Source: Squalus acanthias
Lineage: Eukaryota
Direction of reading: 5' to 3'
DNA: 64,000 bases
NCBI GenBank assembly: GCA_030390025.1
Contig: JASTWF010000034.1
Location: 682,001-746,000 of the forward strand
A program made the translations under genes and the position numbers. Under the pieces are notes generated by a model. That model saw only the letters and a program-made list of their open reading frames with translations, was not told the DNA's origin and did not search any database. Below, in pieces: positions 5,527-63,082 of the stretch. Numbering within the stretch: the first letter of the stretch is position 1; each line of letters opens with the position of its first letter.

Positions 5527-5791
5527 CAGGAACACCAACAGCAGCAAGGAGCGGATAGTAAATGTATTGAACAATCAGAAGTGCGAAATAGATCCGATCG
5601 TCTAATGATAGCCAATCATAATATTCTGAAAGAAAGTCAAACTCCCAGCTGAAACTCCTGCCCATTGTTGTAGCATTCCAATCTACTGTTCTCAGATTCT
5701 GATCCATTGTTGTAGCATTCCAATCTACTGTTCTCAGATTCTGATCCATTGTTGTAGCATTCCAATCTACTGTTCTCAGATTCTGATCCAT
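5527..5791 (-). CDS. Exon 1 of GPR139/GPR142-like class A GPCR (paralog A); exon 2 lies outside the window
   Basis: ATG at 5791; 88 codons +1 nt: (MDQNLRTVDWNATT)x3-MGRSFSWEF...IYYPLLAAVGVP, then phase-1 donor G|GTAAGT at 5527/5526; clear paralog of exon 1 at 51694-51916. Confidence 0.85.
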
Positions 5792-5920
5792 TGTTGTAAC
5801 ATTCCAATCTACTGTTCTCAGATTCCGACTCCCTCTCTGTGGAGCAGCGCGCTGATCCCTGTCAGTGCCGGAGGTGATGCTCTCACTGACACTATGGGAT
5901 AACACATTGAAAGGAGTCCC

Positions 5921-6065
5921 TTATTAATAGAAGAGGGAAACACTGCACTGATACAATCAGAGTCCATGGAGACAGACATTAATTACAGTCACGAAACAAA
6001 CATCTTCAGTTAACCCATGGAGACTGACATTAATTACAGTCACTGAACAAACAGCTTCAGTTAAC
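5921..6065 (-). promoter_or_regulatory. Putative promoter of paralog A: TATA-like TATTAATAA plus duplicated 51-bp element containing TAATTAAT
   Basis: TTATTAATA on + at 5921-5929; ttcagttaac at 6005 and 6056 (period 51); near-identical inverted copy upstream of paralog B. Confidence 0.55.
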
Positions 6066-6269
6066 CCCTTTCAATCCAACACTTTTTGTACCACAGTAAA
6101 GTAGAACATTTACCTGGTCCGGATGGGATGTATGAGGGTTGCAGAGGGAAGGAATGGTGAAGTAGCACAGGCTCTGGCCAGAATCTTTCAATTCTCCTCG
6201 GATATGGGAATGGTGCCAGAGGAGTAATACTAGAGGTGGAAGTGTAACCATATTAGATAGGGACAGACT

Positions 6270-7860
6270 AAAAGACTACGAAAAATTCCAAAATGGTTTT
6301 AGAATGCATGTACGTAAACGCACAAAGTGTGGTGAATAAGTTTGGTGAGCAACAAGCACAATTAGTCGTGTGGCAATATGATGTTGTGGCAATAACGGAA
6401 ACGTGGCTTAAAAAGGATGAGAATTGGGCAATTAATGTTCAAGGGTACAAGGTGTTCAGAAAAGATAGGGAATGTAAAAAGGGAAGTGGGGTGGCAGTGC
6501 TGATGAAGGAAGACATTGTAGTGTTGGAAAGGGAGGATGTTCTTGAGGGGACAAGGGCAGAATCCATTTGGTTAGAGTTGAGGCGCACAAAGGGTATGAT
6601 CACGCTATTGGGGGTATTCTACAGACCTGCAAATAGTGAGAGGGAGGTAGAGGAGCAAATCTGCAGGGAAATCACAGGGATAAGCAAGAGCTATAGAGTG
6701 TTGATATTGGGGGACTTTAATTACGCAAATATCGATTGGGATAATGCTAGGGTAAAGGGAAAGGAAGGGGAGGAATTTCTGAAATGTGTTCAGGAGAACT
6801 TCCTTGACCCGTATATTCCTGACCCAACTTGGAAGGAGGCATTGCTGGATCTGGTGCTGGGGAATGAGGTGGGCCAGGTCGACCAAGTGTCTGTGGAAGA
6901 ACATTTGGATACGAGTGATCATCGTATCATAAGATTTATATTAGCAATGGAGAGGAGCAAGGAACAATCTAGAGTGGAACTTCTAAACGGGAATAGGGCT
7001 AACTTCAAAAGGATGCGAAAGGATCTAGCCAGAGTAAAATGGAACCAAAGACTGACAGGAAAAACTGTAACGGAACAATGGGTGATCTTTAAGGAGAAGA
7101 TGTTCTAAGTGCATGCTAGGTACATTCCAACAATTGGGAAGGGTAAGGGAACCAAATCAAGGGCTCCTTCAATGAAGAGGGAGATAGAGAAGTCGATGAA
7201 ACAAAAAAAAGAGAGTGTATGATGAATGTCAGGTGAATTCTTCAAGGGAGAACCAGAACAAATACAATAAGCTGAGAGGGGAAGTGAAGATGAAAATAAG
7301 ATTGGCAAAGAGAGAATATGAGAGTAGAATGGCGGTTAACATAAAAGGGAACCCACAAATCTTCTACCAGCATGTATACAGTAAGCGGGTAGTAGGAGGC
7401 GGGGTAGGGCCGATCAGGGTCAAAGAAGTTGATATATGCATTGAGGCGCAAGGCAAGGCTAGAATACTCAATGCGTACTTTGTATCAGTGTTTAATAAGG
7501 AGGTGGATGCGGACAAAATATCAGTAGAAGTGGAAAATGCTGAAGCAATGGAAGGGGTGAAAATTGATAGACAGGATGTACTAGAAAGGTTGGTTATGCT
7601 TAGAGTGGATAAGTCGCCTGGTCCAGAAGGTTTGCATCCCAGTTTGCTAAGGGAATTGGGAGATGAGATAGCGGAAGCTGTTGCCATAACTTTCCAATCT
7701 TCCATAGGATGGCGCCCGAGGATTGGAAAGTGGCAAATGTGGCACCATTGTTCAAGAAAGGGTGCAAGGATAATCCCAGTAACGGCAGGCCGGTCAGATT
7801 AAAATTAGTGGTGGGTAAAGTTTTCGAAACAATATTCAAGGAAAAAAGTTACGGGCACCT
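6270..7860 (+). mobile_element. CR1 LINE ORF2 5' part (APE endonuclease into linker), degenerate
   Basis: ORF 6293-7108 has YVNAQS, AITETWL, ILGDFN, LDLVL and SDH endonuclease motifs; ORF 7215-7802 has KSPGPEGLHP. Confidence 0.92.
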
Positions 7861-12705: not shown

Positions 12706-15700
12706 GTATACAGTGGAGGTCCCCAGGTTTCAGAAGCCGGGGCTGGAGGGAGGTATACAGTGGAGTTCCCCAGTGTTCAGTACTGGTGGGTGGTATCCAC
12801 TGGAGTTCCCCAGGGTTCAGTACTGGTGTCTCGAGGGAGGTATACAGTGGAGCTTCCCAGGGTTCAGTACTGGGGCTGGAGAGAGGTATACAGTGGAGTT
12901 CCCCAGTGTTCAGTACTGGTGGGTGGTATCCATTGGAGTTCCCCAGGGTTCAGTACTGTTGTCTGGAGGGAGGTATACAGTGGAGTTCCCCAGGGTTCAG
13001 TACTGTTGTCTGGAGGGGGGTATATAGTGGAGTTCCCCAGGGTTCAGTACTGTTGTCTGGAGGGAGGTATACAGTGGAGTTTCCCAGGGTTCAGTACTGG
13101 GGTCTGGAGGGAGGTATACAGTGGAGTTCCCCAGGGTTCAGTACTGGGGTCTGGAGGGAGGTATACAGTGGAGTTCCCCAGGGTTCAGTACTGTTGTCTG
13201 GAGGGGGGTATGTAGTGGAGTTCCCCAGGGTTCAGTACTGTTGTCTGGAGGGAGGTATACAGTGGAGTTCCCCAGGGTTCAGTACTGGGGTCTGGAGGGA
13301 GGTATACAGTGGAGTTCCCCAGGGTTCAGTACTGGGGTCTGGAGGGAGGTATACAGTGGAGTTCCCCAGGGTTCAGTACCGGGGGCTAGAGGGAGGAATA
13401 CAGTGGAGTTCCCCAGGGTTCAGTACTGGGGTCTGGAGGGAGGTACACAGTGGAGTTCCCCAGTGTTCAGTGGTGGTGTCTGGGGTGAGGTATACAGTGG
13501 ATTTCCCCAGGGTTTAGAACAGGGGGCTGGAGGTAGGCAAACACTGGACATACCCAGGACGCTGTACTTGGGGCTAAGAGGGAGGAATACAGTGGAGTTC
13601 CCCAGGGTTCAGTACTGTTGTCTGGAGGGAGGTATACAGTGGAGTTCCCCAGGGTTCAGTACTGTTGTCTGGAGGGAGGTGTACAGTGGAGTTCCCCAGG
13701 GTTCAGTAGAGTTCCCCAGGGTTCAGTACTGGGGTCTGGAGGGAGGTATACAGTGGCGTTCCCCACAGTTCAGTACTGGGGGCTGGAGGGAGGTAAATAG
13801 TGGAGTCACCAGGGTTCAGTACTGGGGTCTGGAGGAAGGTATACAGTGTAATTCCCCAGGGTATAGTACTGGGGGCTGGAGAGTGGTATACAGTGGAGTT
13901 CCCCAGGGTTCAGTACTGGGGTCTGGAGGGAGGTATACAGTGGAGTTGCCCCAGGTCCAATACTGGGGGCTGGAGGGAGGTACACAGTGGAGTTCCCCAG
14001 GGTTCAGTAGCAGGGGCTGGAGGGAGGTATACAGTGGAGTTCCCCAGGGTCGAGTACTGGTGTCTGCGGGGAGGTATACACTGGAGTTCCTCAGGGATCA
14101 TTACTGGGGGCTGGAGGGAGGTATACTGGTGTCTGGAGGGGGTTATACAGTGGAGTTTCCCAGGGTTCAGTACTGGTGTCTGGGGTGAGGTATACAGTGG
14201 AGTTCCCCAGGGTTCAGAAGCCGGGGCTGGAGGGAGGTATACAGTGGAGTTCCCCAGGTTTCAGTACTGTTGTCTGGAGGGGGGTATACAGTGGAGTTCC
14301 CCTAGGTTCAGTACTGGGGGTCTGGAGGGAGGTATACAGTGTAATTCCACAGGGTTCAGTACTGGGGGTCGGGAGGGAGGTACACAGTGGAGTTTCCCAG
14401 GGTTCAGTACTGGTGTCTGGAGGAAGATATACAGTGGATTTCCTCAGGGTTCAGTACAGGGGAATGGAGGGAGGTATACAGTGCAGTTCCCCAGGGTTCA
14501 GTGCTGGGGTTTGGAGGGTGGTATTCAGTGGAGTTCCCCAGGGTTCCGTTCTGGGGGCTGGCGATAGGTATGCTGTGGAGTTCCCCAGGGTTCAGTACAG
14601 GGATCTGGAGAGGAAATACAGTGGAGTTCCCCAGGGTTCAGACGCAGGGGCTGGAGGGAAGTATACAGTGGAGTTCCCCAGGGTTCAGTTCTGGAGTCTG
14701 GAGGGAGGAAAACTGTGGAGATGCCCAGGGTTCAGCACTGAGGGCTGGAAGGGTGTATACAGTGAGTTCCACAGTGGTCAGTCCTAGGGACTGGAGGTAG
14801 GTATACAGTGAGTTCTACAGGGTTCAGTACTGTGGGCTGGAGGGAGTTATACAATTAAGTTCCCCAGTGTCCAGTGCTGGGGGCTGGAGGGAGGTATACA
14901 GTGGAGTTCCCCAGGGTTCAGTACTGGGGGCTGGAGGGATGTATACAGTGGAATTCTCCAGGGTTCAGTACTGGGGGCTGGAGGGATGTATACAGTGGAG
15001 TTCTCCAGGGTTCAGTGCTGGGGGCATGAGGGAGATATATAGTGGAGGTCCCGAGGGTTCATACTGGGGGCTGGAGGGAGATATACAGTGGAGGATCCCA
15101 GGTTTCAGTACTGCGGGCTGGAGGGAGGTATATAATGCAATTCCCCAGGGTTCCGTATTGGGGGCTTGAGGGAGCTACACAGTGCTGTGCCGCAGGGTTC
15201 CGTAGTAGGGGATGGAGGGAGGTATACAGTGGAGTTCCCCAGTGTTCAGTACTGGGGGTTGGAGGGAGGTATACAGTGGAGTTCCTCAGTGTTCAGTACT
15301 GGGGGTTGGAGGGAGGTATACAGTGGAGTTCCCCAGTGTTCAGTTCTGGGGGCTGGAGGGAGTTATACATGGGAGTTCCCCAGGTTTCAGTACTGGGGGC
15401 TGGAGGGAGATATATAGTGTAGTTCTCCAGAGTTCAATACTGGGGTCTGGAGGGAGGTACTCTGTGGAGATCCCCAGTATTCAGTACTGTGTGCTGGAGG
15501 GAGGAATACAGTTATGTTCCCCAGGGATCAGTAATGTTGTCTGCGGGGAGGTGTACATTGAAGCTCCCCAGGGTTCAATACTGTGGGCTGGAGGGAGGTA
15601 TACAGTGGAGATCCCGAGGGTTCAGTACTCTGGGTTGGAGGGCGGGATATAGTCGAGTTCCCCAGGGTTCAGGACTGGTGTCTGCGGGGAGAAATACAAT

Positions 15701-18700
15701 GGAGTTCCCAAGTATTCAGTACTGGGGGCTGAAGGGAGGTACACAGTAGCGTTCCCCAGGTTTCAGTACTGGGGGTTGGATGGAGGTATACAGTGGAGTT
15801 CCCCAAGGTTCAGTACTGAGGGCTACTGGGAGGAATACAGTGGAGTTCCCCAGGGTTCAGTACTGGTATCTGGTGGGAGGTATACAGTGGAGTTCCCCAG
15901 GGTTCAGAACTAGTGTCTGAGCGGAGATATACCGTGGTGTTACCTAGGATTCAGTACTGGAGCCTGGAGCGAGGTATACAGTACAGTTCCCTAGGTATCA
16001 GTACTGGGGGATGGAGGGCGTTTTACAATGGTGTTCCCCAGGTTTCAGTATTGGTTTCTGGGGGGAGGAGTACATTGGAGTTTCCCAGGATTCAGTACTG
16101 CTGTCTGGGGGGAGGTATACAGTGGAGTTCCCCAGGGTTCAGTCCTGGGGGCTGGACGGAGGTATACAGTGGAGTTCCTCACGGTTCAGCACTTAAGGTA
16201 TTGAGGGAGGTATACATTGGACTTCCCCAAGGTACAGTACTGGAAGCTGGTGGGAGTTATACAGTGGAGTTCAGTACAATGGGCTGGAGGGAGGTATAGA
16301 GTGGAGTTCCCCAGGGTTCAATACTGGGGGTTGGAGGGAGGTATACAGTGGGGTTTCTCAGGGTTCAGTACTGGATGTTGGTGGGTGGTGTACAGTGGAG
16401 TTCCCCAGGGTTCAGTACTGGAGGCTGGAGGGAGGTATACAGTAGAGTTCCCCAGGGTTCAGTACTTGGGCCAGTAGGGAGATATACAGAGGTGTTCCCC
16501 AGGGATCAGTACTGGGCTCTGGAGGGTGGAGTACAGTGAAGTTCCCCCAGGTTCAGTCCTGGGGTCTGGAGGGATGTATACAGTGGAGATCCCCAGAGTT
16601 CAGTTTTGGGGGCTGGAGGGAGATAAACAGTGGATTTCCCCAGGGTTCATTACTAGGGGCTGGAGGGAGCTATATAGTGGAGTTCCCCAGGCTTCATTAC
16701 TGGCGTCTGGAGGGAGGTATACTGTGGAGATCCCCAAGGTTCAATACTGATGTCTGGAGGTAGGTATACAGTGCTGTTCCCCAGGGTTCAGTACTGGGGT
16801 CTGGAGGTAGTAGACAGTGCTGTTCCCCAGGGTTCAGTACTGGGGTCTGGGGTGAGGTATACAGTGGAGTTCCCCACGGTTCGGTACTGTGGGCTGGAGG
16901 TAGACATACAGTGGTGTTCCGCATTGTTCAGTACTCGTGTCTGCAGGGAGCTATACAGTGGAGTTCCGCAGGTTTCAGTACTGGGGTCTGGGGGGAGGTA
17001 TACAGTGGAGTTCCCCAGGGGTCAGTACTGGGGTCTGGGGGGAGATATACAGTGGAGAGCCCCAGGGTTCTGTCCTGGGGTCTGGAGGGACGAATACAGT
17101 GTTGGTCCCCAGGATTCAGTACTGGGGAATGGAGGGAGGTATACAGTAGTGTTTCCCAGTGTTCAGTACTGGTGTGTGGGAGGAGATATACAGTGGAGTT
17201 CGCCATCGTTCAGTACTCGGGGCTGGAGGGAGGGATACAGTGGAGTTCCCCAGGGATCAGTACTGGTGTCTGGGGGAGGTTTACAGTGGAGTTTCCCAGG
17301 GTTCAGTACTGGTGTCTGGGGCGAGATATACTGTGTAGTTCCCCAGTGTTCAGGACTGGTGTCTGGGGGGAGATATAGTTTGGAGTTGCCCAGGGTTCAG
17401 TACGGGGGGCTGGAGGGAATTTATACAGTGGAGTTCCCCCGCATCCAGTACTGGGGGGCTGGAGGGAGGTGGGCAATGGAGTTGCTCAGCGTTCAGTACT
17501 GGGGTCTGGAGGGTGGTACGCAGTGGAGTTTCCCAGGGTTCAGTACTGGGGTCTGGACGGAGGTATACAGTGGAGTTTCGCAGGGTTCAGTGTTGGGGTC
17601 TGGAGGGACGTATACAGTGGTTTTCCCCAGGGTTCAGTACTGAGGGCTGGAGGGAGGTATACAGTGGAGTTCCCCAGGGTTCAATACTAGGGGCTAGAGG
17701 GATGTATACTGTGGAGATCCCCAGAGTTCATTACTGGGATCTGGAGGGAGGTATACAGTGGCGATCCCCAGGGTTCAGTACTGTGGGCTGGAGGGAGATA
17801 TACAATGGATTTCCCCAGGGTTCAGTACTGTGGGCTGGAGGGAAGTATACATTGGAGTTCCCTAATGTTCAATACTGGAGGCTGGAGAGTGGTATACAGT
17901 GGAGTTCCCCAGGGTTCAGTACTGGAGGCTGGAGGGAGGTATACAGTAGAGTTCCCCAGGGTTCAGTACTTGGGCCAGTAGGGAGATATACAGAGGTGTT
18001 CCCCAGGGATCAGTACTGGGCTCTGGAGGGTGGAGTACAGTGAAGTTCCCCCAGGTTCAGTCCTGGGGTCTGGAGGGATGTATACAGTGGAGATCCCCAG
18101 AGTTCAGTTTTGGGGGCTGGAGGGAGATAAACAGTGGATTTCCCCAGGGTTCATTACTAGGGGCTGGAGGGAGCTATATAGTGGAGTTCCCCAGGCTTCA
18201 TTACTGGCGTCTGGAGGGAGGTATACTGTGGAGATCCCCAAGGTTCAATACTGATGTCTGGAGGTAGGTATACAGTGCTGTTCCCCAGGGTTCAGTACTG
18301 GGGTCTGGAGGTAGTAGACAGTGCTGTTCCCCAGGGTTCAGTACTGGGGTCTGGGGTGAGGTATACAGTGGAGTTCCCCACGGTTCGGTACTGTGGGCTG
18401 GAGGTAGACATACAGTGGTGTTCCGCATTGTTCAGTACTCGTGTCTGCAGGGAGCTATACAGTGGAGTTCCGCAGGTTTCAGTACTGGGGTCTGGGGGGA
18501 GGTATACAGTGGAGTTCCCCAGGGGTCAGTACTGGGGTCTGGGGGGAGATATACAGTGGAGAGCCCCAGGGTTCTGTCCTGGGGTCTGGAGGGACGAATA
18601 CAGTGTTGGTCCCCAGGATTCAGTACTGGGGAATGGAGGGAGGTATACAGTGGTGTTTCCCAGTGTTCAGTACTGGTGTGTGGGAGGAGATATACAGTGG

Positions 18701-39647: not shown

Positions 39648-39698
<51 letters not shown>

Positions 39699-47050: not shown

Positions 47051-47059
47051 GGGGGAGGT

Positions 47060-48490: not shown

Positions 48491-49039
48491 TGTTCAGCCC
48501 CAACTCATTGCCAAGTGCCCAGTAAAGGAATTGTATCCCCAAAATGCCAAACGTTAACTTGTGTTTAGTATTTTACCGTAAGTACTGTTCAACCCAGGAT
48601 AACAGTTTGATTCCTACAATTGGCATCAAGGGGACAATAGGCACAGGGCAGCGGGTAGAATTCGGCCCGGCCTGTCGCACAAAACACCATTAGCTCCAAA
48701 TCCCCCCACCTCCACTCCAATTCACAGACCATCCAGACTTGGACATATATCACCATTCCTACATCGTCACTGGGTCAAAAGCCTGAAATTCCTTCAGTAA
48801 CAGTATTGTGAGAGAACCTTCACCACACGGACTGCAGCGGCTCAAGATGAAGGCCCACCATTTTCTCATGGGTAACTAGGGATGGGCAAGTAATAGCGGC
48901 CTTGACAGCGTTACACATACCCGGAGAATAAATAGATAGAAATAATAAAATAGGAATAACATCAATGATTTTTAATTCACCGATTGAATCCAGGCGAGGC
49001 CTGTGATCAGAGCGGGGCCTCATGCTCCGCTAAGCAAAT

Positions 49040-51372
49040 TACAAAGAATGTACAGAACAGAAACAGGCCATTCAGCCCAACTGCTCCGTGCCCGCCTTTA
49101 TGCTCCACGTGAGCCTCCTATCTCCCCTATTCATCTAACTCGATCAGCGTAACCATCTATTCCTTTCTCCTTCATCTGTTTATCTCACTTCCCCTGAAAT
49201 GCATCTATGCTATTCGCCTCCACTACTCCCTGTGGTAGTGAGTTCTCAACACTCTCTGGGTGCAGAAGTTTCTCCTGAATTCCCGCTTGGATTTATTGGT
49301 GACTATCTTATATTCATGGCCCCAACTTTTGGTCTCATAATTATTTCATGATTTCAGTTTTTTTAAATCTATTTTTAAAATTGTTAACACACCTTGTCTC
49401 ACCATCCCATTGTGTTTGCTTTTCTGCTGTAGCCTTTATCAGAGTACAAGTAACGATTAGAATCTGGCTCAAAAACTGCGGAACGTCGATTCTACATATG
49501 AGACGAGGACTCAATGGCTTCTGTTATCACAGATTCACAGAATCATGCAACACAGAAGGAGGCCATTGTGCCTATGCCGGCTCTTTGAAAGAGCTATTCA
49601 ATTAGTCCCACTCCCCTGTTCTTTTCCCATAGCCTTCCAAATCCCTCACTTTCAGTATTGATCCCGTTCCCTTTTTGAAAGTTATTATTGAATCTGCTTC
49701 TATTACCTTTTCAGGCAGTGCATTCCAGATCACAACAACTCGCTGCGTAAAACTCATTCTCCTTATTTTTCCTCTGATTCTTTTGCCAATTATCTTAAAT
49801 CTGTGCCTTCTGGTCACCACCCCTTCTGTCACTGGAAACAGTTTATCATTATTTACTCTATCCAAACCCTTGAACACCCCCATTAAATGTCCCCTTAACC
49901 TTCTCTGCACGAAGGGGAAAAATCTCAGCTTGTCCAGTCTCTCCATATAACTGAAATATTTCATCTCTGGTACCATTCTAGTAAATCCCCTCTGCGCCTC
50001 CTCCAAGGCCTTGACATCCTTCATCACGTGCGGTGCCCAGAATTGGACACAATACTCCAGCTCAGGCCTAACCGGTCATTTATAAAGGTTTAGAATAACT
50101 TCCTTGCTTTTGTACTCTATGCCTCTATTTATAAAGCCAAAGATCCTGTTTGTGTTTTTAACAATCTTAGCTACTTGTCCTGCCACCTTCAAAGATGTGT
50201 GCACACAAACTCCCAGGTCTCTTTGTACCTGCAGTACATTTAAAATGGTGCCATTTAGTTTATATTGCCTCTCCTCATGTTTCCTCCCAAACTGTATCAC
50301 TTCTCACTTCACTGTGTTAAATTTTATCTGCTATGTGTCTGCCCATTTCACCAGTCTGTCTATGTGCTACTGAAGTCTACTACTCCCCTCACTGTTTACT
50401 ACAATTGTGAGTTCCGTGCCATCTCCAGACTTTGAAATTATGCCTTTAGACTTTAGTCCAGGCCATTCATGTCTATCAAAAAGAGCACTGGCCCTAATAT
50501 CGACACCTGGGGAACACCACTGTACACTCCCCTTCCGTTTGAAAAACACCCGTTCACCACTACTCTCTGTTATCTGTCCCTCAGCCAATGTTGTTTCCAC
50601 GCAGCCACTGCCCCTTTAATCCTATGGGTTTCCGTTTCCCTATCAATCTATTAAGTTGCACTTTATCAAACGCCATTTGAAAGTCCATATACACAACATA
50701 TAACTGTACTACGGTCATCAACCCTCCTCGTTACTTCATGAAAGAACTCAATCAGGTATGTCAGACAGACTTTGTATTTAAAACAATCGTTGCTGATTGT
50801 CACTTATTCATCCACGTTTTTCCAAATGACATATAATTTTGTTCCGGAATATGGCCTCTTGAAGTTTCCCCACCACCGACATTAGGCTGACGGGCCTGTA
50901 GTTACAGGCCTCTAATTCTGCCCTCTTGAGCATCCCTGATTATAATCGCTCAACCTTTGGTGGCCGTGCCTTCTGTTGCCTCGGCCCTTAGCTCTGCAAT
51001 TTCCAGCCTAAACTCATCCACCTCGCGACCTCTCTTTGCTCCTTTAAGACGCTCATTAAAACCTACCTCTTTGACCAAGCTTTTAGTCACCTGCCCTAAT
51101 TTATCCTAATGTGAATCGGTGTCAAAGTTGTGCCTTAAAATACTCCTCTGCAGCGCCTTGAGAAGTTTTACGACGTTAAATGCGCTATATAAATGAAAGT
51201 TGTTGTTGATTTATCCCTCTCTCCTTTTTTAAACAGGCTGTAACATTTGCAACCCTCCAGTCCTCTGGCAACACTCCCACATCCAAGGAGGGTTGAAAGA
51301 TTCTGGCCAGAGCCTGCGCTATTTCCACCATTCCTTCCCTGAGCAACCCTCAGACATCCCATCCGGACCAGG
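49040..51372. mobile_element. CR1 fragments (-) with an L2 3' fragment (+, about 50905-51210)
   Basis: ORFs 49602-50027 and 50076-50300 are CR1 RT C-terminus; L2 tail ending GCGCTATATAAATG at about 51190. Confidence 0.8.
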
Positions 51373-51419
51373 TAAATGTTCTACTTTACTGTGGTACAAA
51401 GAGTGCTGGATTGAAAGGA

Positions 51420-51600
51420 GTTAACTGAAGCTGTTTGTTCAGTGACTGTAATTAATGTCAGTCTCCACGGGTTAACTGAAGTTGTTTGTTTAGTGACTGT
51501 AATTAATGTCAGTCTCCATGGACTCTAATTGTATCAGTACAGGGTTTCCCTCTTCTATTAATAAGGGACTCCTTTCAATGTGATATCCCATAGTGTCAGT
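51420..51600 (+). promoter_or_regulatory. Putative promoter of paralog B: two copies of a 51-bp element (TGTTTGTT, TAATTAAT), TATA-like TATTAATAA at 51556-51564, Inr-like TCAGT near 51596
   Basis: gttaactgaa at 51420 and 51471; TATA-like box 130 nt upstream of the first ATG; conserved in paralog A. Confidence 0.55.
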
Positions 51601-51693
51601 GAGAGCATCACCTCCGGCACTGACAGGTATCAGCGCGCTGCTCCACAGGGAGGGAGTCGGAATCTGAGAACAGTAGATTGGAATGTTACAACA

Positions 51694-51916
51694 ATGGATC
51701 AGAATCTGAGAAAAGTAGATTGGAATGCTACAACAACGGGTCGGAATCTGAGAACAGTGGATAGGAATGTTACAACAATGGGCAGGAGTTTCAGCTCGAA
51801 TATTAACTTTCGTTCAGTATTTTATGATAGACTATCATTAAACTATCGGATAAAGTTGGCACTTCAGATTACTCAAATGATTTACTATCCCCTCATTGCT
51901 GCTGTTGGGGTTCCTG
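51694..51916 (+). CDS. Exon 1 of GPR139/GPR142-like class A GPCR (paralog B)
   Basis: ATG 51694 (ACAATGG); 74 codons +1 nt ending IYYPLIAAVGVP, donor G|GTAAGT at 51916/51917; joins exon 2 in frame to give GVPVNLVTIVIL. Confidence 0.88.
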
Positions 51917-52064
51917 GTAAGTCTCTCTATCCAGCTATTCTGTTAACCATGTTTTACTGTATTACTGTTCTTGTCATTTACTCTCCCCTCCTTGCTGCGG
52001 TTGTTGTTCCAGGTCAATCTTTAGAAACATGTTGTTCTTGTTCTAGTTCTAGTTTCAGGCAATA

Positions 52065-52625
52065 GAGAAATGAACTGGGAATTGAATTCCAGGACTGAGG
52101 CGGGAGCAGTCTAATTTAGGCATCTCTGGGAATGAAATTCCTGGATTCAGGCGGGAGCATTTTAATCTAGGCAGCCCTGGGAATGAAATTCCTGGACTGA
52201 GATGGGAGCAGTGTAATCTAGGCAAACCCGGGAATGAAATTCCTGGACTGAGATGGGAGCACTGTAATCTAGGCAGCCCTGGGAATGAAATTCCTGGACT
52301 GAGGCGGGAGCAGTGTAATCTAGGCAGCCCTGGGAACGAAATTCCTGGACTGAGATGGGAGCAGTGTAATTTAGACAGCACCGGGAATGAAATTCCTGGA
52401 CTGAGATAGGAGCAGTGTAATCTAGGCAGCCCTGGGAATGAAATTCCTGGACTGAGATGGGATCAATGTAATCTAGGCAGCCCTGGGAATGGAATTCCTG
52501 GACTGAGATGGGAGCAATGTAAACTAGGCAGCCCTGGGAATGAAATTCCTGGACTGAGATGACAGCAGCGTAAACTAGGCAGCCCTGGGAATAAAATGCC
52601 TCGATTGAGGCGGGAGCAGTGTCAC
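52065..52625. repeat. 51-bp intronic tandem repeat (GGGAATGAAATTCCTGGACTGAGATGGGAGCAGTGTAATCTAGGCAGCCCT), about 11 copies
   Basis: 17-aa periodicity in minus ORF 52055-52381; direct inspection. Confidence 0.93.
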
Positions 52626-52685
52626 GTAGGCGAGTCCCATCACTGGGATCATCTCTCGGATCCTGCCGTTTAGGACCATTTATAC

Positions 52686-55250
52686 GAACAAACGAACATA
52701 CGAATTAGGAGCAGGAATAGGCCAATCGGCCCTTCGAGCCTGCTCCGCCATTCAATAAGATCATGGCTGATCTGATTACTCCACATTCCCGTCTACCTCA
52801 GATAACTTTTCACCCTCTTGCTTACCAAGAATCTATCTACCTCTGCCTTAAAAATATTAAAACACTCTACTTCTACCGCCCTCTGAGGAAGAGAGTTCCA
52901 AAGACTCACGATCCTCTGTGAAAAAACATTCTCCTCATATCTGTCTTAAATGGGCGACACCTTAATTTTAAACAGTGACCCCTAGTTCTACATTCTCCCA
53001 CAAGAGGAAACATCCTCTCCACATCCACTCTGTCCAGACCCCTCAGGATCTTATATGTTTCAATCAAGTCACCTCTTATTCTTCTAAACTCCAACGGATA
53101 CAAGCCTAGACTGTCCAACCTTTCCTCATAAGAATACCCACCCATTGCCGGTATTAATCGAGTAAACCTTCTCTGAACTGTTCCAACGCATTTACATCCT
53201 TCCTTAAATAAGGAGTCCAATACGGTACACAGTACTCCAGATGTGGTCTCACCAATGCCCTGTATAACTGAAGCATAACCTTGCTACTTTTGTATTTACT
53301 TCCCCCCGCAATAAACGATAACATTCTATTAGCTTTCCTAATTATTTGCTGTACCTGCATAGTAACCTTTTGCGATTCATGCACTGGGACATCCAGATCC
53401 CTCTGCATCTCAGAGCTCTGTAATCTCTCACCATTTAGATAATATGCTTTTTTATTCTTCCTGCCAAAATGGACAACTTCACATTTTCCCACATTATACA
53501 CCATTTGCAAGATCTTTGCCCATTCACTTAACTTATCTATATCTCTTGGGAGCCTCCTTATGTCCTTTTCACAATTTGCTTTCCTACCTATCTTTGTGTC
53601 ATTAGCAAATTTAGCAACCATACCTTCGGTCCCTTCATCCAAGACATTTATATAAATTGTAAAATGTTGAGGCCCCAGCACTGATCCCTGTGACACACCA
53701 CTCGTTACATCTTGCCAATTAGAAAATGACCCATTTATTCCTACTCTCTGTTTACTGTTAGCTAGCCAATCTTCTATCCATGCCAATATGTTACCCCCTA
53801 CACCATGAACTTTTATTTTCTCAATAACCTTTGATGTGGCACCTTATCAAATGCCTTCGCGAAATCTAAGTACAGTACATCCATCGGTTCCCCTTTATCC
53901 ACAGCACCTGTTACTTCCTCAAAGAACTCCAATAAATTGGTTAAATATGATTTCCGTTGCACAAAACCATGTTGACTCTACCTGATTACTTTGAGCTTTT
54001 CTAAATGCCTGCTATAATGTCTTTAATAATAGCCTATGACAGATGTTAAGCTAACTAGCCTGTAATTTCCTGCTTTCCGTCTCCCTCCCTTTTTTGAATA
54101 AAGGAATTACATTCGCTATATTCCAATCTAATGGAACCTTACCCGAATCTAGGAAATTTTGGAAAATGTAAACCAACGCATCAACTATCTCACTAGCCAC
54201 TTCTTTTAAGACCCTCGGATGAAGTCCATCAGGACCCGGGGACTTTTCAGCCCGCAGCTCCAACAATTTTCTCAATGCCACTTCCCTGGTGATAATAATG
54301 TTCTTGAGTTCCTCCGTCCCTTCCACTTCCTGATTTATAGCTAGTTCTGGGATGTTACTTGTATCCTCAAAATGAAGACCGATGCAAAATACCTGTTCAA
54401 TTCAACTGCCATCGCCTTATTTTCCATCATTAATTCCCCAGACTCACTTTTTATAGGACCAACGCTCACTTTGTTGACACTTTTCTTTTTAAAATATCTA
54501 TAGAAACTCTTACTATCTGTTTTTATATTTTTGCTAGCTGCTTTCTCTCGTACTCTAATTTTTCTCTCCTCATTAATCTTTTAGTCATTCTGTGCTGTTT
54601 TTCATATTCTGTCCGATCTTCTGATCTGCCAGCCATCTTTGCGCAATTATATGCTTTTTCTTTAAGTTGAATATTATCTTTAACTTTTTTAGTTAACCAC
54701 GGATGGTGGGTCCTCCCCTTGGAATTTGTTCTTTCTTATTGGAATGTATATATTCTGTGTATTCTGAAATATCCCCTTAAATGTCTGCCACTGCAACTCT
54801 ATTCACCTATCCCTTAAACAAATTTGCCAGTTCACTTTAGCTAGCTCTGCTATCATGCCCTCATAATTGCCCGTATTTAAGTTTAAAATACTCGCCTTGG
54901 ACCCACTCTGTTCTGTCTCTCAAATTGAATGTAAAATGCAATCATTTTATCGCTGCTACCTAGGGGCACCTTCACTATGAGGTTATTAATTAATCCTATC
55001 TCTTTGCACAATAACAGGTCGAGTTTCGCTCCAGAACGTGATGTTGTAAGAAACTATCCCGAAAACAATCCATGAACTCCTCATCTATGCTGCATTTGCC
55101 CATCTGATTTTTCCAGTCTATATGCAGATTAAAATCCCCCATGATTAATTAAGAGAGCCACCCTTCCACCTTTTCCCACCTGCCTGTCCTTCCTAAATGT
55201 TATTTACCCTTCAATATTCAGGTCCCAATCATTGTCATCCTGCAGCAATA
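52686..55250 (-). mobile_element. CR1 LINE (APE C-terminal part to 3' end), degenerate
   Basis: ORF 53154-53786 SGVSQGSVLGP...FANDTK...RPHLEYC; ORF 54051-54326 KSPGPDGLHP. Confidence 0.9.
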
Positions 55251-56475
55251 TAAAAGAAAATAAAGGAAGGAGGAGAGAGCGGGAGGAGCGGCCGGTGATA
55301 AAGGAGGGCGAGAGAATCCGGACCATAAAGAGAAGAAATGGTCAATAGATGATGATTTTTTTAAATATTGAGTTGAATTTTGTTAAGTTAGTTAATAGTC
55401 TATTAAATAGAGGCATGGCAGGGCACCTCAGTCCGGTGGAATGTACATCTTGTGCCTTGTGGGATCTCCAGGACACTGCCCACGGATTTCGGAGATTGAG
55501 CAGCAGCGGGCGTCACTGCGGTGCATCCGTGAGGCTGAGAGTTACGTGGATAGCACGTTTCAGGAGGTGCTCACCCCGCAGCATAAGAGTGAGCGGGCAG
55601 AGAGGGAATGGATGAGCGCCAGACAGACAAGGAGGACTATGCAGTTAGTGCAGGAGTGTACTGAGTGCATCTCACTCTCTAATGTTCGATGTTCCCTCTG
55701 GGGAGTGCAGCCCAAGCCAAATCCACGGCACCACGCGGGGCTCAGTTGTAGGTCGGGGGAGGAGGAAGATCGGGAAAGCAACAATGATAGGACATTCGAT
55801 TAGTTAGGAGAACAGACAAGCCTTTCTCCGGCCACAGAAGTGACTCCAAGACGATATGTAGCCTCCCTGGTGCCAGGGTCAAGGATGTCACTTAGTGGCT
55901 GCAGGACATTCTGAGGGGGGAGGTATCGGTATCAACAACATAGGTAGAGAGAGGGATGTGATCCTGCGGGCAGATTATAGGGAGCTAGGAAAGAAATTAA
56001 GAAGCAGGACCTCGACGGTAGTAATCTCCAGATTACTCCCGGTGCCACCAGCTGGTGATTATAGAAATAGAAGGATAGAGCAGATGATTGTGTGGCTGGA
56101 GATATGGTGCAGGAGGGAAGGCTTTAGATTCTTGGGACATTGGGACAGGTTCTGGGGGAGATGGGACCTGTAGAGGCCGGTCGGATGGCACCTCAACAGA
56201 GCTGGGAGCAATATCCTCATGGGGGCGGGGAGGTTTGCTAATACTGTTGGGGAGGGTTTAAACTAATCTGCCAGGGGAATGGGCACCAGGATGTGGCATT
56301 AGAAAGGAGAAACAAGGTGCACAAAGGATTGGGAGAGACAGATAACAGTTGATTAAGGAAAAGTACGGTGTTAGGTGGAGTCAGAATAAGAGAGAATCCA
56401 AGAAGGTCTAAGATAGAAACAGAAAATGCTGGAAACACTCAGTAGGTCAGGCAGCATCCGTGGAGAGAGAATCAG

Positions 56476-56512
56476 AGTTAATGTTTCAGGTCTGTGACCC
56501 TTCGTCAGAACT
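56476..56512 (-). ncRNA. Second hammerhead motif in the inverted arm (palindrome mutated to ACAU)
   Basis: Minus strand AGUU-CUGACGA-A-GGGUC(ACA)GACCU-GAAA-CAUU-AACU. Confidence 0.55.
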
Positions 56513-56878
56513 GGAAAAAGTTAGAGATGCAACAGATTTTAACCAGGTGCAGGGGCAGTGAAAGGAGGGAGGGGAGGAAATAACAAAAGGGTGGAAGGCA
56601 GGAGTGGTTAAATGTTGCAAATAGGGATGGCAGAATCATCAACAGCTGCCGCCTGAGCTGCAGTCAGAGTGGGAGTGGAGCGGAGAATTAAAGTGACAAG
56701 CGCTCCACTCCCACTCTGACCTCTCTGTCCTCGGCCTCTTACAACGTAAGCTCGAGGAACAACACCTCATCTTTCTATTCACAGGCCGACCCTTTTATTA
56801 TTTCCTCTCCCCACCCCCCCGCCCGCCTTACCCTGCCCCTACACCTGCTTAAAACCTGTTACCTCTCTAAACTTCTCC

Positions 56879-56915
56879 AGTTCTGACGAAGGGTCATCGA
56901 TCTGAAACGTTAACT
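56879..56915 (+). ncRNA. Minimal type I hammerhead ribozyme motif in the Penelope-like repeat
   Basis: AGUU-CUGACGA-A-GGGUC(AUC)GAUCU-GAAA-CGUU-AACU: core boxes, stem II, palindromic ACGU and stem I AGUU/AACU. Confidence 0.65.
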
Positions 56916-57027
56916 CTGTTTGTCTCTCCACGAATGCTGCCTGACCTGCTGAGTTTTTCCAGCATTTTCTGTTGTTATTTCAGATTTTCAGCATCCGCAG
57001 TGTTTTGCTATTGTAAGGTCTAAGATA

Positions 57028-57488
57028 AAAGAAAAACTTACATTTATACAGCGCCTTTCACGATCACCAGACATCTCGAAGCGTTTTACAGTCAATGAAT
57101 ACTTTTGGAGTGTAGTCATTGTTGTAATATGAGAAATGCCGCAGGCAATTTGCGGAAAGCAAACTCCTATAAACAGCAATGTGATAATGATCAGATAAAC
57201 TGTTTTTGTTATGTTGATTGAGGGATAAATATTGGCCAGGATACCGGGGATAACTCCACTACTTTTCTTCAAACTAGTGCAATGGGATATTTTACGTCCA
57301 CCTGAGAGAGCAGACGGGGCCACGGTTTAACATCTCATCTGAAAGACGGCACCTCTGACAGTGCAGCACTCCCTCAGTACTGCACGGGAGTGTCAGCCTA
57401 GATTTATGGGCTCAAGTCCCTGGAGCTTGGAACCCACAACCTCTGACTGAGAGGCGAGTGTGCTACCTACTGAGCCACAGCTGACACT
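57028..57488 (-). mobile_element. Deu-domain tRNA SINE (SacSINE1-like), full length
   Basis: Minus head GTGTCAGCTGTGGCTCAGTAGGTAGCAC...GGGTTCCAAG; central GGAGTGCTGCACTGTCAGAGGTGCCGTCTTTCAGATGAGATGTTAAACCG; L2-like tail AGGCGCTGTATAAATG. Confidence 0.8.
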
Positions 57489-58912
57489 GTCAGATAGGTT
57501 TACAATGCATGTGTGTAAACGCACGAAGAGTGGTAAATAAGGTTGGTGAGCTGCAGGCGCAAATAGCGACATAGGCAAATGATGTTGTGGCAATAACAGA
57601 GACTTGGCTCAAAAAGGGCAGGATTGGGTACTAAATATTCCTGGATATAAGATGTTCGGGAAAGATAGGGAAGGAAACAAAGGAGGTGGGTTTGCAATAT
57701 TGATTAAGGAGAATATTACAGTGCTGTAGAGAGAGGGTGTCTTGGAGGGGTCAAGGACACAATCTATTTGGTTAGAGTTAAAGAACAATAGAGGTACCAG
57801 TACACCGCTGGGTGTATTCTATATGCCACCAACTAGGAGGAAGGATATAGAGGAGCAAATCTGCAGGGGAATTACAGTGTGGTGGAAGAAATATAGAGTA
57901 GCAATAATGGGGGACTTCAATTGACCTAATATTCACTGAGATAGCAATAGTTTAAAGGGCAGAGAGGGGGACGAATTTCTGAAGTGAGTTCAAGAGAACT
58001 TTCCTGATTGGTGCATTTCTGGCCCAAAGAGAAGGATCCAGTTCTGTGGAGTGGGGTAGCTAAAGTGGAGCAAGTGTCAGTAAGGGTACATTTAGGGAAG
58101 AGTGATCATTGTATCATATGGTTCAGATTAGCTATGGAAAAGGACAGGGAGCAATCTAGAGTAAAAATACTTAAAAGGAAGAGGGCCAATTTCAGTGGGT
58201 TGAAAACGGAGCTGGCCTGTGTAAATTGGAATCAAAGATTGGCAGGCAAAATTGTAATCGAACAATGGGCTGCCTTTACAGAAGAGATGATTGAGGTACA
58301 ATCGAGGGACATTCCCACGGGGGGGGGGGATATGGTAGTGCAGCCAAAGCCAGAGCTCACTGGATGACGAAACAAATCGTGGAAGTTGGAGGTGAGAAGA
58401 AGCAAGAATAGGGGGCGTATGACAGACGTCAAGTTCAGTACACAAGTGAGAACATGGCTGAATATAGAAAGTTCAGAGAGGAAGTGAAAAAGGAAATAAG
58501 AGGGGGAAAGAGAGAGTATTAGAATAGATTGGCAGCTAACATAAAATGGAATCCAAAAGTCTTCTATATTCATATAAATATTAAACGGGCAGCAAGAGGA
58601 GGGATGGGGCCGTTTAAGGACCAAAAAGGAGACCTACGAATGGAGGCCGAGGGCATGGCTGAGATACCAAATGAATGCTTTGCATCTGTCTTTACCAAGG
58701 AAGAAGCTGCTGCCAAAGTCATAGTGAAAGAGGAGGTAGTTGAGATACTGGATGGGCTAAAAATTGATAGAGAAGGTACTAGAAAGGCTGGCTGTACTTA
58801 AAGTAGATAAGTCACCAGGAGCGGATAGAATGCATCCTCGGATGCTGAGGGAGGTAAGGGTAGAAACCGCGGAGTTACTGGCCATAATCTTCCAATCTTC
58901 CTTAGATGCGAT

Positions 58913-59660
58913 GGCCCAGAAATTAAACATGGCTGGTTCCCGCGGGGGTAAGGATTCCCCGCGATATCGCACTCCGCGCCTACCTTTTTGCTCCGGGCCC
59001 ACACGAACTTTAGTTTCAAAGGCTCTCTCTGTTGGAACCGTGCAGTGCTTGCGTGTCCCAGAGGCGCAATTAGTTCGTGCGAGCTCTGCGATCACGTGAT
59101 TCAGGTGGAGCCAATGGCAGCACTCCATCTTTCATTCATAGTTTTGACGGCAAGAGCTGTCAAAGCTATGAATACTACACACCCCCAAAAGAACAGCTAA
59201 ACCTCAATTAAATTTTAAAAAGCCATCACATTAATAAAATAAGTATATTTAAATAAATTAATCACTTTAAACAAAAAATTAAATTTTTGAAAAAATTTAA
59301 AATCTTTTTAAAAGTTATAAAAATAAACTTACCTTTCTTAAAGTCTCTAAAAAAGATAAACCTGTTGAAAAAAATTTAAAATAATACTTAATTAACTACT
59401 TACCTTGTTAAAAGGGGGTCGTACGCCTGCTTTCTTTGTGTGTAAAATCGTCACCACTTACCTGCGCGTTCAAAGCTGAAAAAAAACTAAGTGCACTGCG
59501 TGCGCACAGCCTGTAGTTCACTTAGGAACAACCCCTTTGCAATTCACGAAGTACCGGTTTCCCACGCACGCGCAGTGCATGCAGGAAACCGGCAATTCGG
59601 GATCGAATACGCGAGAGTACACAGTGCGTACTCTCGCGTATTAGGTTTAATTTTCGGGCC
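58913..59660. mobile_element. Non-autonomous DNA transposon (MITE), PIF/Harbinger-like
   Basis: TIRs GGCCCAGAAATTAAAC / GTTTAATTTTCGGGCC; 3-bp TSD GAT at 58910-58912 and 59661-59663; AT-rich core; cleanly interrupts the CR1. Confidence 0.82.
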
Positions 59661-59755
59661 GATTTGTTGCCAGAGGACTGGAGAATTGCAATAGTTACAC
59701 CCTCGTTTAAAAAGGGTGTAATGATAAACCCGGCAACTATAAGCCAGCCAGTTTC

Positions 59756-60392
59756 ACATAGAAACATAGAAACATAGAAGATAGGAGCAGGAGTAGGCCA
59801 TTCGGCCCCTCGAGCCTGTTCCGCCATTTAATGAGATCGTGGCTGATCATACAAATTCAGTACCCTGTCCCTATTTTCTCCCCATATCCCGTGATCCCTT
59901 TAACCTCAACAAATATATCTAACTGCTTCTTGAGATTATTTAATGATTTGGCCTAAACTGCCTTCTGTGAGAGAAATCCACAGGTTCACCACTCTCTGTG
60001 TGAAGACATTCCTCCTCATCTCAGTCCTAAATGGGTTACCCCTTATCCTTAGACTGTGACCCCTGGTTCTGGACTCCCCCGCCATCGGGAACATCCTTCC
60101 TGCATCTAGTCTGTCCAGTCCTGTTAGAATTTTATAAGTTTCAATGAGATACTCTCTCATTCTTCTAAACTCTAGCGAATATAAGCCTAATCGAACCAAT
60201 CTCTTTTTAAACGTCATTCCTGCCATCCCTGGTATCAGCGTGGTGAATCTTCGCTGCACTCTCTCCATGGCAAGAACCTCCTTCCTCAGTTAAGGTGACC
60301 AAAACTGCACACAATACTCAAGGTGTGATCGCAGCAAGACCCTGTACACCTGCAGCAAGACATCCTTGATCCTGTATTCGAATCCTCTCGCT
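59756..60392 (-). mobile_element. CR1 3' fragment, same subfamily as 8235-8710 and 21375-21900
   Basis: (catagaaa)n tail; ORF 59936-60268. Confidence 0.88.
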
Positions 60393-60733
60393 GTGGGTCA
60401 ATTTCGCGAGCAGCGTTAAAATAGTCGCTCTCGGGCGCTAAATATGTAGCGCCCCATTACACCTCCCCCCCCCCCGAAGGTGCTGAGGGGAGGTGCTAAC
60501 CCACCGACTTTCCCCCCCCCATGTTTTACTGGGTTTCTCTCTTTGTCGTTCCCCATCCCATCCGCGCTGCTGTCAGCTATTGATTCTGAAGATGATTTCA
60601 CGTTTCCAAGACTCAAATGTAAATTTATTGGAGGTGACTCTTTATTTAACGAATTTCAGTCTGCTACCGACACTGAACATTAGTGACAGATCAGAAGAAT
60701 GCTGTCTTGGTTTAGGAGACGTTTCACCTAATG

Positions 60734-60866
60734 GCGAAAGGCCATCGACCCGAAACTTTAACTCTGTTTCTCTCTCTCTCCACAGATGCTGCCTGACCCG
60801 CTGAGTATTTCCATCATTTTCTGTTTTCATTTCAGATTTCCAGTATCCGCAGTATTTTGTGTTTGT
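60734..60866 (+). mobile_element. 5'-truncated Penelope-like terminal repeat with 12-bp TSD
   Basis: TTTCACCTAATG at 60722-60733 and 60867-60878; body matches 56887-57010. Confidence 0.8.
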
Positions 60867-62180
60867 TTTCACCTAATGCTCGATATGGTTACTTACAGAG
60901 TCACAGGAACAAATCCTGGCAGATCACATCCACATCTTTAAATGTCTGAAATATCCGCTAATCATTCAGCTCCAGTCAGTGTCTCCTTTCCCACCCTCTC
61001 CAGTTCTGCATTATTGGCACTGCTTCTGATGGTTAAAGTAAGATTACAAGGATAATTTACATTCTCACAAAACGTTAATTCAGCCAAATTTCGTTCCATT
61101 TCTTTCTAATCATTGTTTTGAATTTACAATTGGATCCCATGCCCGTCTGACACAGTTCAGTGGATCTGTCAGTGAGACCCAGAGTGATTCTCTATTGCCT
61201 CCTGCTGCACTTCAGGATAAACAATCCCAGCTGATTCTAACTGAAGTACTGAGGATAAGAAAATCCTTTGATATCTTCCCGTCTAATATTCTCTGCACAG
61301 GTTGGAAACAACAGGTAAAAAAGTACAAGGAGGAAATCTCTTCCATTTGTGTTCAGATACTTTACAACAGCATTCGGCAGCACTTTGCCTGTGGGATAAA
61401 ATGTCTGATTTCGATACTGATAAATGCATTTAGTGGGACATTAGCTGGTCAATCATCACTGATTACTTTAATTCAGAGTCCATTATTTGCAAGTTACTTG
61501 GCAAATCTTCCTTTCAATGAGCTAGAATTTGAGTATTTCAACAAAAATGCAGTACACTCAATCTCCAAAACATATCTGATAGCCCAGTTATCTTTATAAC
61601 TGCAGTGCACTTGCATTTATTATCTTAGCATTGTCATATAACATCTGTACATTTTACATAAAATTGCCTGTAATTATTGCATGCCAAGGTTGGAGTTTCT
61701 GTATTTTGCTGTTGCATTCATTTTCAGTTCTAAATAGAATGGATATTCTGACCAGGAGCAGGAATCCAAGCGGGATTTCCCCTCCCTAACACAATGGCAC
61801 AGAAGCGAATTGCACCGCTCCAAATGCTGACTGAACCCGGGACACGAAGGCTTCCTGAGAGGGTTTGGTCATTTGTGTCTCTGGTACCTCGGGCGGTGCT
61901 TTTGTCTGCTGGGCTAAATTTAGATCGATCATTTAATCTCTCCTTGATCAAACATCTGTTACTTTCATGTTGTATTTATTCCCATTTCACTTATTGATTC
62001 CACAATATATTCCCGTATATTCTTGCAATAAGCCCTGTATTGAGCGCCATAGTTAATAGGATTATATTATATCATTCAATGTCGCTCGTGAGTTGCAGAT
62101 TTCACCCCGAATTCCATCAAACTGCTGCTTTTGCTCCCAGCCTGATGAATAATTTCCCTGTTTATTTCCCTTCCTCACAG

Positions 62181-63082
62181 TGAACTTAGTGACGATTGTG
62201 ATCCTTTCTCGGGGAAAGTGTGGACTATCCAAATGTGTCACTCGCTACCTGGTGGCCATGGCAGCGGCGGATCTACTGGTCGTTATCCTCGACGTGATAT
62301 TGAGGCACATTCCCATTGTTTATTGGGAACAGTTTGATTTCGTGTATTTCATCCCCGTGTGTAATATCCACGCTGTCCTGCTGTTCACAGCCACAGACTG
62401 TTCTGTCTGGTTCACCGTCACTTTCACATTTGATCGATTTGTGGCCATTTGTTGCCAGAAGCTGAAAACTAAATATTGCTCCGATCAAACGGCAGCTGTG
62501 GTTCTGGGAACAGTGACTGTGCTGAGCGGTTTAAAGAACATCACCTGGTATTTTATGTTCACAGGTCGGTATTGGCTTCAGAACAGCCCCTGGTTTTGTG
62601 ATGTCACAAAGGATGTTCAGTATTCACGGGTCTGGGGAACAATCGAGCTCCTTCATTATATTCTCACCCCGTGTGTCCCATTTGTGGTGATTGTGCTGCT
62701 CAATGCTGTCACCGTCAGACACATTTTAGTGGCCAGCAGAGCCCGCAGGAGACTCCGGGGTCCCAGCAGTGGGGAGAGTTCCAGAGACCCAGAGATGGAG
62801 AGCCGCAGGAAATCCATCATTTTACTGCTTGTTATCTCCGGCAATTTCATCCTGTTATGGGCAGTGTTTATGGTGTATTCTATATGGGGCCGGTGGTGGT
62901 ATTTGGGGTATAATTCTGTATTTCTACCTGATTATGTAATGGAACTGGGATTCATGCTGCAGCTGCTGAGTTGCTGCACAAACACTGGGATTTACGCCGT
63001 GACCCAGACTAAGTTCAGAGAGCAGTTGAAGAATGTGGGGAAATATCCCTTTACACTGATTGTAAAACTCATTAAAGGATGA
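62181..63082 (+). CDS. Exon 2 of GPR139/GPR142-like class A GPCR (paralog B), TM1 end to stop
   Basis: Polypyrimidine tract plus CAG acceptor at 62180; uninterrupted frame with AMAAADLL (TM2), CNIH, FDRFVAIC (TM3), ECL2 Cys, FILLW (TM6), CCTNTGIY (TM7); TGA at 63080-63082. Confidence 0.93.

Follow-up and report, generated by a model that had tools for sequence, protein, structure and literature searches.

A large family of GPR139-related receptors in cartilaginous fishes and its possible role in chemosensation

Introduction

The OR, TAAR, V1R/ORA, T2R, V2R/OlfC, FPR and MRGPR receptors are clustered multigene families that combine a variable ligand pocket with a conserved cytoplasmic face. 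Cartilaginous fishes have been described as poor in G-protein-coupled receptors (GPCRs) and in olfactory receptors (PMC8455134, PMC10116579). Here we report on two genes, A and B, in a 64,000-nt stretch of the Squalus acanthias genome (contig JASTWF010000034.1, positions 682,001 to 746,000; this whole stretch is termed the window), which belong to a multigene family of class A (rhodopsin-like) GPCRs in chondrichthyans that is related to GPR139 and GPR142.

GPR139 has two exons, and its human and zebrafish orthologues are about 70% identical (PMC7318219). Its tryptophan/phenylalanine (Trp/Phe) site is formed by F109, H187, W241, E108, R244 and N271 (PMC7318219, PMC8807744). Extra fish subtypes near GPR139/142 have been named GPR210A/B in a survey that includes no sharks (PMC6504862). 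A preliminary description of the window, made from its letters alone, had proposed a divergent pair of GPR139/GPR142-like paralogues belonging to an expanded, possibly chemosensory, family of amino-acid sensors.

Structure of gene B

Gene B is encoded on the forward strand. Exon 1 (coding part 51694..51916; 74 codons plus 1 nt, ATG at 51694) ends after G-V-P in transmembrane helix 1 (TM1) and is followed by a phase-1 intron of 10,264 nt (51917..62180; GT..AG, donor GTAAGT, acceptor TTCCTCACAG), while exon 2 (62181..63082) encodes the rest of TM1 through TM7 and helix 8 and closes with a TGA stop codon. The splice, which divides the codon G|TG (phase 1) directly after G-V-P, was assigned from homologues that read G-V-P-V-N-L across the presumed junction. 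The complete two-exon coding sequence is 1125 nt long (374 amino acids (aa) plus TGA), in agreement with the preliminary description of an intact protein of about this length with DRF and NTxxY motifs. The phase-1 intron in TM1 after G-x-P, claimed for both paralogues, was likewise found; it precedes N1.50, and the donor after G-V-P is the same in A and B.

The N-terminus encoded by exon 1 consists of two 14-aa repeats with N-A-T and N-V-T sequons, followed by the ectodomain and TM1. Exon 2 matches Pfam 7tm_1 (E = 1.3e-19), with no other domain at E ≤ 0.1, and its predicted structure has seven helices plus helix 8 (predicted local distance difference test, pLDDT, 90). The disulfide pair between TM3 and extracellular loop 2 (ECL2) is C60/C139, and the activation switches D30 (D2.50), DRF, P166-V75-F222 (P-V-F), W226 (W6.48), N267 (N7.49) and Y271 (Y7.53) are all present. 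P6.50 and P7.50 are missing, the latter from the NTxxY motif, and so is Y5.58; human GPR139 also lacks P7.50 and Y5.58 (alignment), so these two losses in gene B are not peculiar. The 7tm_1 match, the seven-helix fold with helix 8, the switches and the disulfide are those of a class A GPCR and, as judged from its sequence, gene B is an intact two-exon member of this class. The nearest proteins to exon 2 are from sharks, with 72-81% identity (protein cluster search).

Size, range and phylogeny of the family

Among 3,724 candidates, 2,526 protein clusters (90% identity) match exon 2 of gene B at E ≤ 0.001. The best 120 of these, to which the taxonomic count applies, are all from sharks (63 Heterodontus, 38 Heptranchias, 18 Pristiophorus and 1 Stegostoma). 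Among these 120, 14 of the 38 Heptranchias rows lie on one 142.7-Mb contig and 9 Heterodontus rows on one 90.1-Mb contig (hand counts). A search of 50%-identity clusters gave 118 representatives at E ≤ 1e-30; 30 of the best 150 were looked up, and 22 of the 23 that are members of the clade are chondrichthyan, from 13 genera of sharks, skates, rays and the chimaera Callorhinchus. In a tree of 61 rows, rooted on an outgroup of three proteins and built without canonical GPR139 and GPR142, the 41 family rows form one clade (support 97/93). Callorhinchus is nested inside it (99/87), hence diversification of the family began before the chimaera-shark split. In addition, 3,550 contigs from 55% of a DNA run match 61500-63110 (85% likeness), which fits many copies but gives no copy number. 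Membership per genome amounts to dozens at the least, and probably to hundreds. The lineage expansion and clustering guessed at from the pair are borne out by the 2,526 clusters, the shared contigs and the single clade, on a scale far beyond that guess, with at least 63 clusters in Heterodontus.

The label 'probable GPR139', assigned automatically, is carried by 119 of the best 120 clusters, and a survey based on the four classical olfactory families does not reach this family. In the databases, many of its gene models begin with a spurious first exon drawn from long interspersed nuclear element (LINE) or unrelated sequence, or have been given the name of a vasopressin V2, capa or tachykinin receptor-like protein. 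Such wrong names and first exons hide the family from name-based surveys. The genes are already in RefSeq under the automatic name, and the expansion itself appears undescribed: no account of it was found in the literature searched, although one may exist in supplements, figure labels or subscription journals beyond that literature. A term search of the main texts of PMC11979771, 10.1101/2025.06.08.657570, PMC13100897, 10.1101/2025.02.19.638963 and PMC8455134 gave no passage on it, and there was no match in the supplements of PMC5278576, PMC13188829, PMC11372145 (one file in part), PMC10529500 and PMC8455134 (all but files 13-24).

Relationship to GPR139 and to two apparently single-copy orphan lineages

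Human GPR139 is the best sequence match in the PDB, with 39 bits for the gene B protein and 83 bits for the family profile; the next receptor scores 59 bits with the profile, and GPR142 is not among the matches. No relationship to the OR, TAAR, V1R, T2R or V2R families was seen, 7tm_1 being the only Pfam match and none of these families occurring among the best 60 PDB matches. In Foldseek, whose scores do not tell one class A receptor from another, GPR139 ranks 13th (TM score 0.71) and the other matches are mostly peptide receptors; ESM Atlas searches gave automatically named clusters only. Like gene B, human GPR139 (PDB 7VUG-7VUJ and 9M42) has two exons, N at 5.58, F3.33, H5.42 and W6.48. Unlike gene B, it has E3.32, R6.51, N7.39 and P6.50, lacks the cysteine pair between C3.25 and ECL2 and has a shorter intracellular loop 3 (ICL3), and it is a single, conserved gene whereas the shark family is multi-copy and variable. 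Orthology to GPR139 was ruled out by the 23% identity of gene B to the human protein (structural alignment), by the retention of three of the six Trp/Phe pocket residues and by the multi-copy state. In the comparison with PDB chains GPR139 is the nearest mammalian receptor, as expected of a member of the GPR139/GPR142-related clade in a wide sense. The term 'GPR139-like' used previously is apt in that GPR139 is the nearest human relative, but the relationship is remote and two non-mammalian orphan lineages are closer, scoring 118 and 111 bits to gene B.

The first orphan lineage (XP_069092602.1; Acipenser EOD39_13109) is also labelled 'probable GPR139' in RefSeq and is represented by a single cluster per genus in 20 amphibian genera, as well as in sturgeon. 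Its search gave 25 matches in all, with no teleost or amniote among them, and the next after its own lineage are four shark-family proteins; FMRFamide-receptor-like clusters also occur among the look-alikes of the frog gene. It is found in all three amphibian orders and has N at 2.50 and an invariant pocket that keeps K6.51 and N7.39. The shark family and this orphan are sisters in the tree (94/89), and a D-x-E motif in ICL3 is present in 21 of 21 orphan and 47 of 48 shark-family sequences. By contrast, the two share only about 30% identity, and the orphan has a single cluster per species and a nearly invariant pocket. An alternative to the sister grouping is not rejected (p-AU, from the approximately unbiased test, 0.24), and the sisterhood is favoured by these sequences but not proven.

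The second orphan lineage (Latimeria XP_005988539.1; 111 bits), again labelled 'probable GPR139', occurs in coelacanth, teleosts, amphibians and reptiles; neither mammals nor birds are represented in the best 120 of its 145 matches. It has its own shark orthologues at 60-66% and is therefore a paralogue lineage of the shark family. The two are similar in TM1, helix 8 and a TQ-x-x-FR motif, but the second lineage has ERF, lacks W6.48 and has a conserved pocket, in which E2.61/R3.28/D3.29/R6.51/D7.36 are invariant. Two of its records are labelled TMEM183A and some are merged with TMEM183A, suggesting a neighbouring gene. This lineage may correspond to GPR210A/B.

Ligand pocket and pattern of divergence

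The pocket was mapped by sequence (profile) alignment rather than by superposition. Gene B keeps F68, H158 and W226 in place of F109, H187 and W241 of GPR139, while the polar residues E108, R244 and N271 are replaced by L67, F229 and F257. In 117 close members (the best 120 minus 3 aberrant, duplicated or fused models) the latter three positions are L in 112, F in 61 or L in 48, and F in 101. The wide shark family keeps only W6.48 of the GPR139 site, and the amphibian orphan keeps F3.33, W6.48, K6.51 and N7.39. With the three polar residues replaced, GPR139-style amino-acid binding is not supported; the earlier proposal of such sensing is weakened, though the retained aromatic cage, together with a conserved D2.57/R2.61 pair, leaves a related ligand possible.

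Divergence in the family is concentrated towards the extracellular side. In 48 diverse members, which are 50%-cluster representatives picked for divergence and may include pseudogenes, the outer helix halves have a mean column identity of 0.36 and the inner halves one of 0.64; in the 117 close members the values are 0.74 and 0.86. The corresponding values are 0.87 vs 0.81 in 20 amphibian orphans and 0.67 vs 0.69 in 24 second-lineage proteins, and these single-copy lineages lack the asymmetry of the shark family (difference of differences, p 7e-7 and 7e-12). In the wide family the 17 columns corresponding to GPR139 contacts vary most of all (0.27 vs 0.38 in other outer columns, p 0.04), and in the amphibians they are the most conserved (0.97 vs 0.85, p 0.005). 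In gene B's own subfamily the variability moves to the rim, that is ECL1, ECL2, ECL3, 6.58, 7.32 and 7.35. Across 83 members, hardly any change is seen in the switch and cytoplasmic motifs. The family displays the pattern of chemoreceptor families, being clustered and multigene with a variable pocket and a conserved cytoplasmic face.

In the 33 ectodomain codons, 17 replacement and 2 silent changes separate genes A and B (22% of replacement sites), compared with 13/281 and 3/100 nt in the flanks (16/381; 3-5%) and 11/112 nt in a CR1-like fragment upstream of both genes. The excess in the ectodomain has p 2e-6 against the flanks and p 0.023 against the CR1-like fragment. Replacement sites that change faster than adjacent non-coding DNA are not explained by relaxation alone, and the divergence is consistent with positive selection.

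Possible function of the family

On the best explanation, which is held tentatively as a whole, the family would have arisen from one GPR139/GPR142-related orphan in an early jawed vertebrate. Amphibians and sturgeon would have kept a single copy of this ancestor, and in sharks, rays and chimaeras the family would have grown through segmental duplication of the promoter and both exons. Its members would bind many different external ligands with one common G-protein output, perhaps of the Gq/Gi type by analogy with GPR139, and subfamilies would differ in the deep pocket. In gene B's subfamily a polar deep pocket (D2.57, R2.61, H3.28, D3.37, E5.39, H5.42, R6.59 and E7.36) is predicted to lie under the variable rim, which would suit peptides or amino-acid derivatives with a common core. 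That the family is a diversified sensor repertoire is very probable. That it is chemosensory is suggested by the divergence pattern but is put forward with less than even confidence; the expressing cells might be microvillous olfactory neurons, taste buds or solitary chemosensory cells. The catshark nose is described as having only Go/TRPC2 neurons and small known receptor repertoires (PMC10116579), leaving room for a further chemoreceptor family. A more specific version, in which an unrecognised family of vertebrate chemoreceptors, confined to cartilaginous fishes and exceeding their V2R repertoire in size, was recruited from a neuropeptide-type orphan and is sparsely expressed in chemosensory cells of nose, taste organs or skin, is doubtful at present.

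Several observations weigh against the chemosensory interpretation or against the divergence signature on which it draws, in addition to the way in which the 48 diverse members were picked. The outer/inner asymmetry of the close members compared with the second lineage has p 0.097, the GPR139-contact columns are average in gene B's subfamily (0.72 vs 0.74, p 0.38), and the p values are optimistic because columns and sequences are not independent. Taken by itself, the A-B ectodomain ratio of replacement to silent change (dN/dS), 2.6, falls short of significance (p 0.23), and gene conversion over a short tract by a third paralogue would fit the ectodomain pattern equally well. The immune and nociceptor families FPR and MRGPR bear the same divergence signature, and GPR139 and GPR142 act in brain, islets and gut. 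A spliced end at 62181 was not found in the contigs of three putative RNA runs (61500-63110, 85% likeness); these contigs cover the intron and cross the acceptor unspliced and give no evidence of expression. The chemosensory part of the preliminary description agrees with the divergence pattern.

The same diversification of pocket and ectodomain would be expected of receptors for immune or barrier surveillance. Their sites of expression would be granulocytes, mast-like cells or sensory nerve endings, where they would detect microbial, parasite or damage-derived peptides as FPRs or MRGPRs do. Fast ectodomain change and variable glycan repeats would suit an arms race, and the role may be vacant, MAS1 and its relatives being reported absent in cartilaginous fishes (PMC8455134). 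There is, however, no phylogenetic link to chemoattractant receptors, and the label 'receptor 139' does not occur in the examined part of a bamboo-shark immune single-cell marker supplement with NCBI descriptions (a weak negative), and this role is considered unlikely. Passive amplification in duplication-prone, repeat-rich DNA, with most copies silent and the outer-half divergence reflecting relaxed constraint, would account for the LINEs and minisatellites throughout the window, for intron sequence that is multi-copy too and for the many database models that are partial or have wrong first exons, as expected under little transcript support. It is nevertheless improbable given that gene B is intact, that the switch and cytoplasmic motifs hardly vary in a clade with a chimaera among its members and that ectodomain replacement sites outpace the adjacent non-coding DNA.

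Aromatic amino-acid or nutrient sensors like GPR139/GPR142, with gut, islets or brain as their site of action and extra copies serving dosage or finer adjustment, would agree with GPR139 being the best solved-structure match by sequence and with the residues that gene B (F3.33, H5.42, W6.48) and the amphibian gene retain, and D2.57/R2.61 could form an alternative clamp. This has little probability, since E108, R244 and N271 are L, F and F in gene B, the wide family keeps W6.48 only and hundreds of different pockets are not needed for two ligands. Receptors for fast-evolving endogenous or social peptides, of the reproductive tract, of sperm or acting as pheromones, are brought to mind by the mostly peptide-receptor fold matches and by the FMRFamide-receptor-like clusters near the frog gene. 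The fold scores, however, fail to separate class A receptors, and we know of no matching expanded ligand family. Invertebrate relatives of the clade are the sex-peptide/MIP, proctolin and FMRFamide receptors, with which GPR139 has been grouped (PMC12208981), but a social-peptide function is regarded as very unlikely.

In whichever tissue it acts, the family would be an independent case of a class A orphan turned into a diversified repertoire, and sharks and rays may have in it a set of sensors that has so far escaped recognition. If the chemosensory interpretation is true, it would explain keen shark chemosensation despite the near absence of olfactory receptors. The single-copy counterpart in Xenopus tropicalis would display the ancestral state, and the amphibian orphan is a candidate for deorphanisation in Xenopus.

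Gene A and the inverted duplicate block

Gene A lies on the reverse strand. The coding part of its exon 1 (5527..5791; 88 codons plus 1 nt, ATG at 5791) ends at a phase-1 donor after G-V-P and encodes three 14-aa repeats, each with an N-A-T sequon, a unique ectodomain and the first half of TM1. The repeats correspond to a 42-nt coding tandem repeat (5662..5825, reverse strand; 3.9 copies, 99% matches). In the best 120 matches, 1-5 copies of the 14-aa repeat occur in 65 of 120 homologues (loose pattern); being in frame, with a good start context and present in these homologues, the repeats were ruled out as untranslated region. A tblastn search with 9 family proteins and a six-frame hidden Markov model scan gave one exon 2 only in the window, that of gene B. 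Exon 2 of gene A is therefore outside the window, and of the two receptor paralogues proposed one is complete and the other is seen as its first exon.

The upstream block of gene A (5792..6223, reverse strand) was co-duplicated with that of gene B (51261..51693, forward strand), its inverted homologue; it is 95% conserved over 5830-6110, has a doubled 51-nt unit and continues into a CR1-like fragment. Taken whole, the inverted block pairs 5423-6223 with 52020-51261 (87% over 802 nt, E = 0) and comprises exon 1, the DNA upstream of it and the first 100 nt of the intron. The block and its shared CR1 fragment had been noted before; the fragment (6111-6223 and 51261-51373) is 90% identical, and its CR1 type was judged by eye against other LINE frames rather than via a repeat library. 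The genes were also described as a head-to-head pair about 46 kb apart, and the inverted starts are indeed at this distance, but there is no shared promoter and the DNA between is of LINE and minisatellite type. A bidirectional promoter was ruled out by the 46 kb between the starts, and retrocopies by the co-duplication of intron and promoter.

The doubled 51-nt unit is situated about 200 nt upstream of both ATGs (5964-6067 and 51420-51518) in the 95%-conserved part of the block and is followed by an A/T-rich, TATA-like word. Each copy has a TAATTA core, which we take to be a homeodomain-type site. The 5' end of the gene A intron (5276..5526, reverse strand) contains two degenerate copies of the exon-1 end with its donor, and in both introns (5276-5526; 51969-52016) such a copy lies in frame 96 nt downstream. 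Splicing there would lengthen the protein by a hydrophobic stretch of 32 residues. One Heptranchias model begins in the equivalent intronic copy, showing that the feature is old.

Repeats elsewhere in the window

LINE fragments and minisatellites fill the DNA between genes A and B, and the gene B intron contains a 51-nt minisatellite (52075-52622), LINE fragments and the degenerate exon-end copy 96 nt past the donor. The largest minisatellite (12706-21369; 8.7 kb) has a 47-nt unit in about 185 copies and, when translated, repeats SGVPQGSVLG, which is also found in CR1-type reverse-transcriptase frames of the window; the array was apparently born from a LINE coding segment. It holds a duplicated stretch of about 1.5 kb, with identical open reading frames at 16678 and 18182. 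Further tandem arrays (31-nt, AG/CT-rich, 14-nt G-rich, 67-nt, 51-nt and 27-nt GC-rich) occupy parts of 4-593, 35590-47824, 52075-52622 and 63142-63997, the 27-nt array beginning 60 nt past the gene B stop codon. A segment of the gene A intron (1127-1449) is homologous in direct orientation to one upstream of gene B (48351-48690; 78%, by eye extending further) and is probably a composite repeat.

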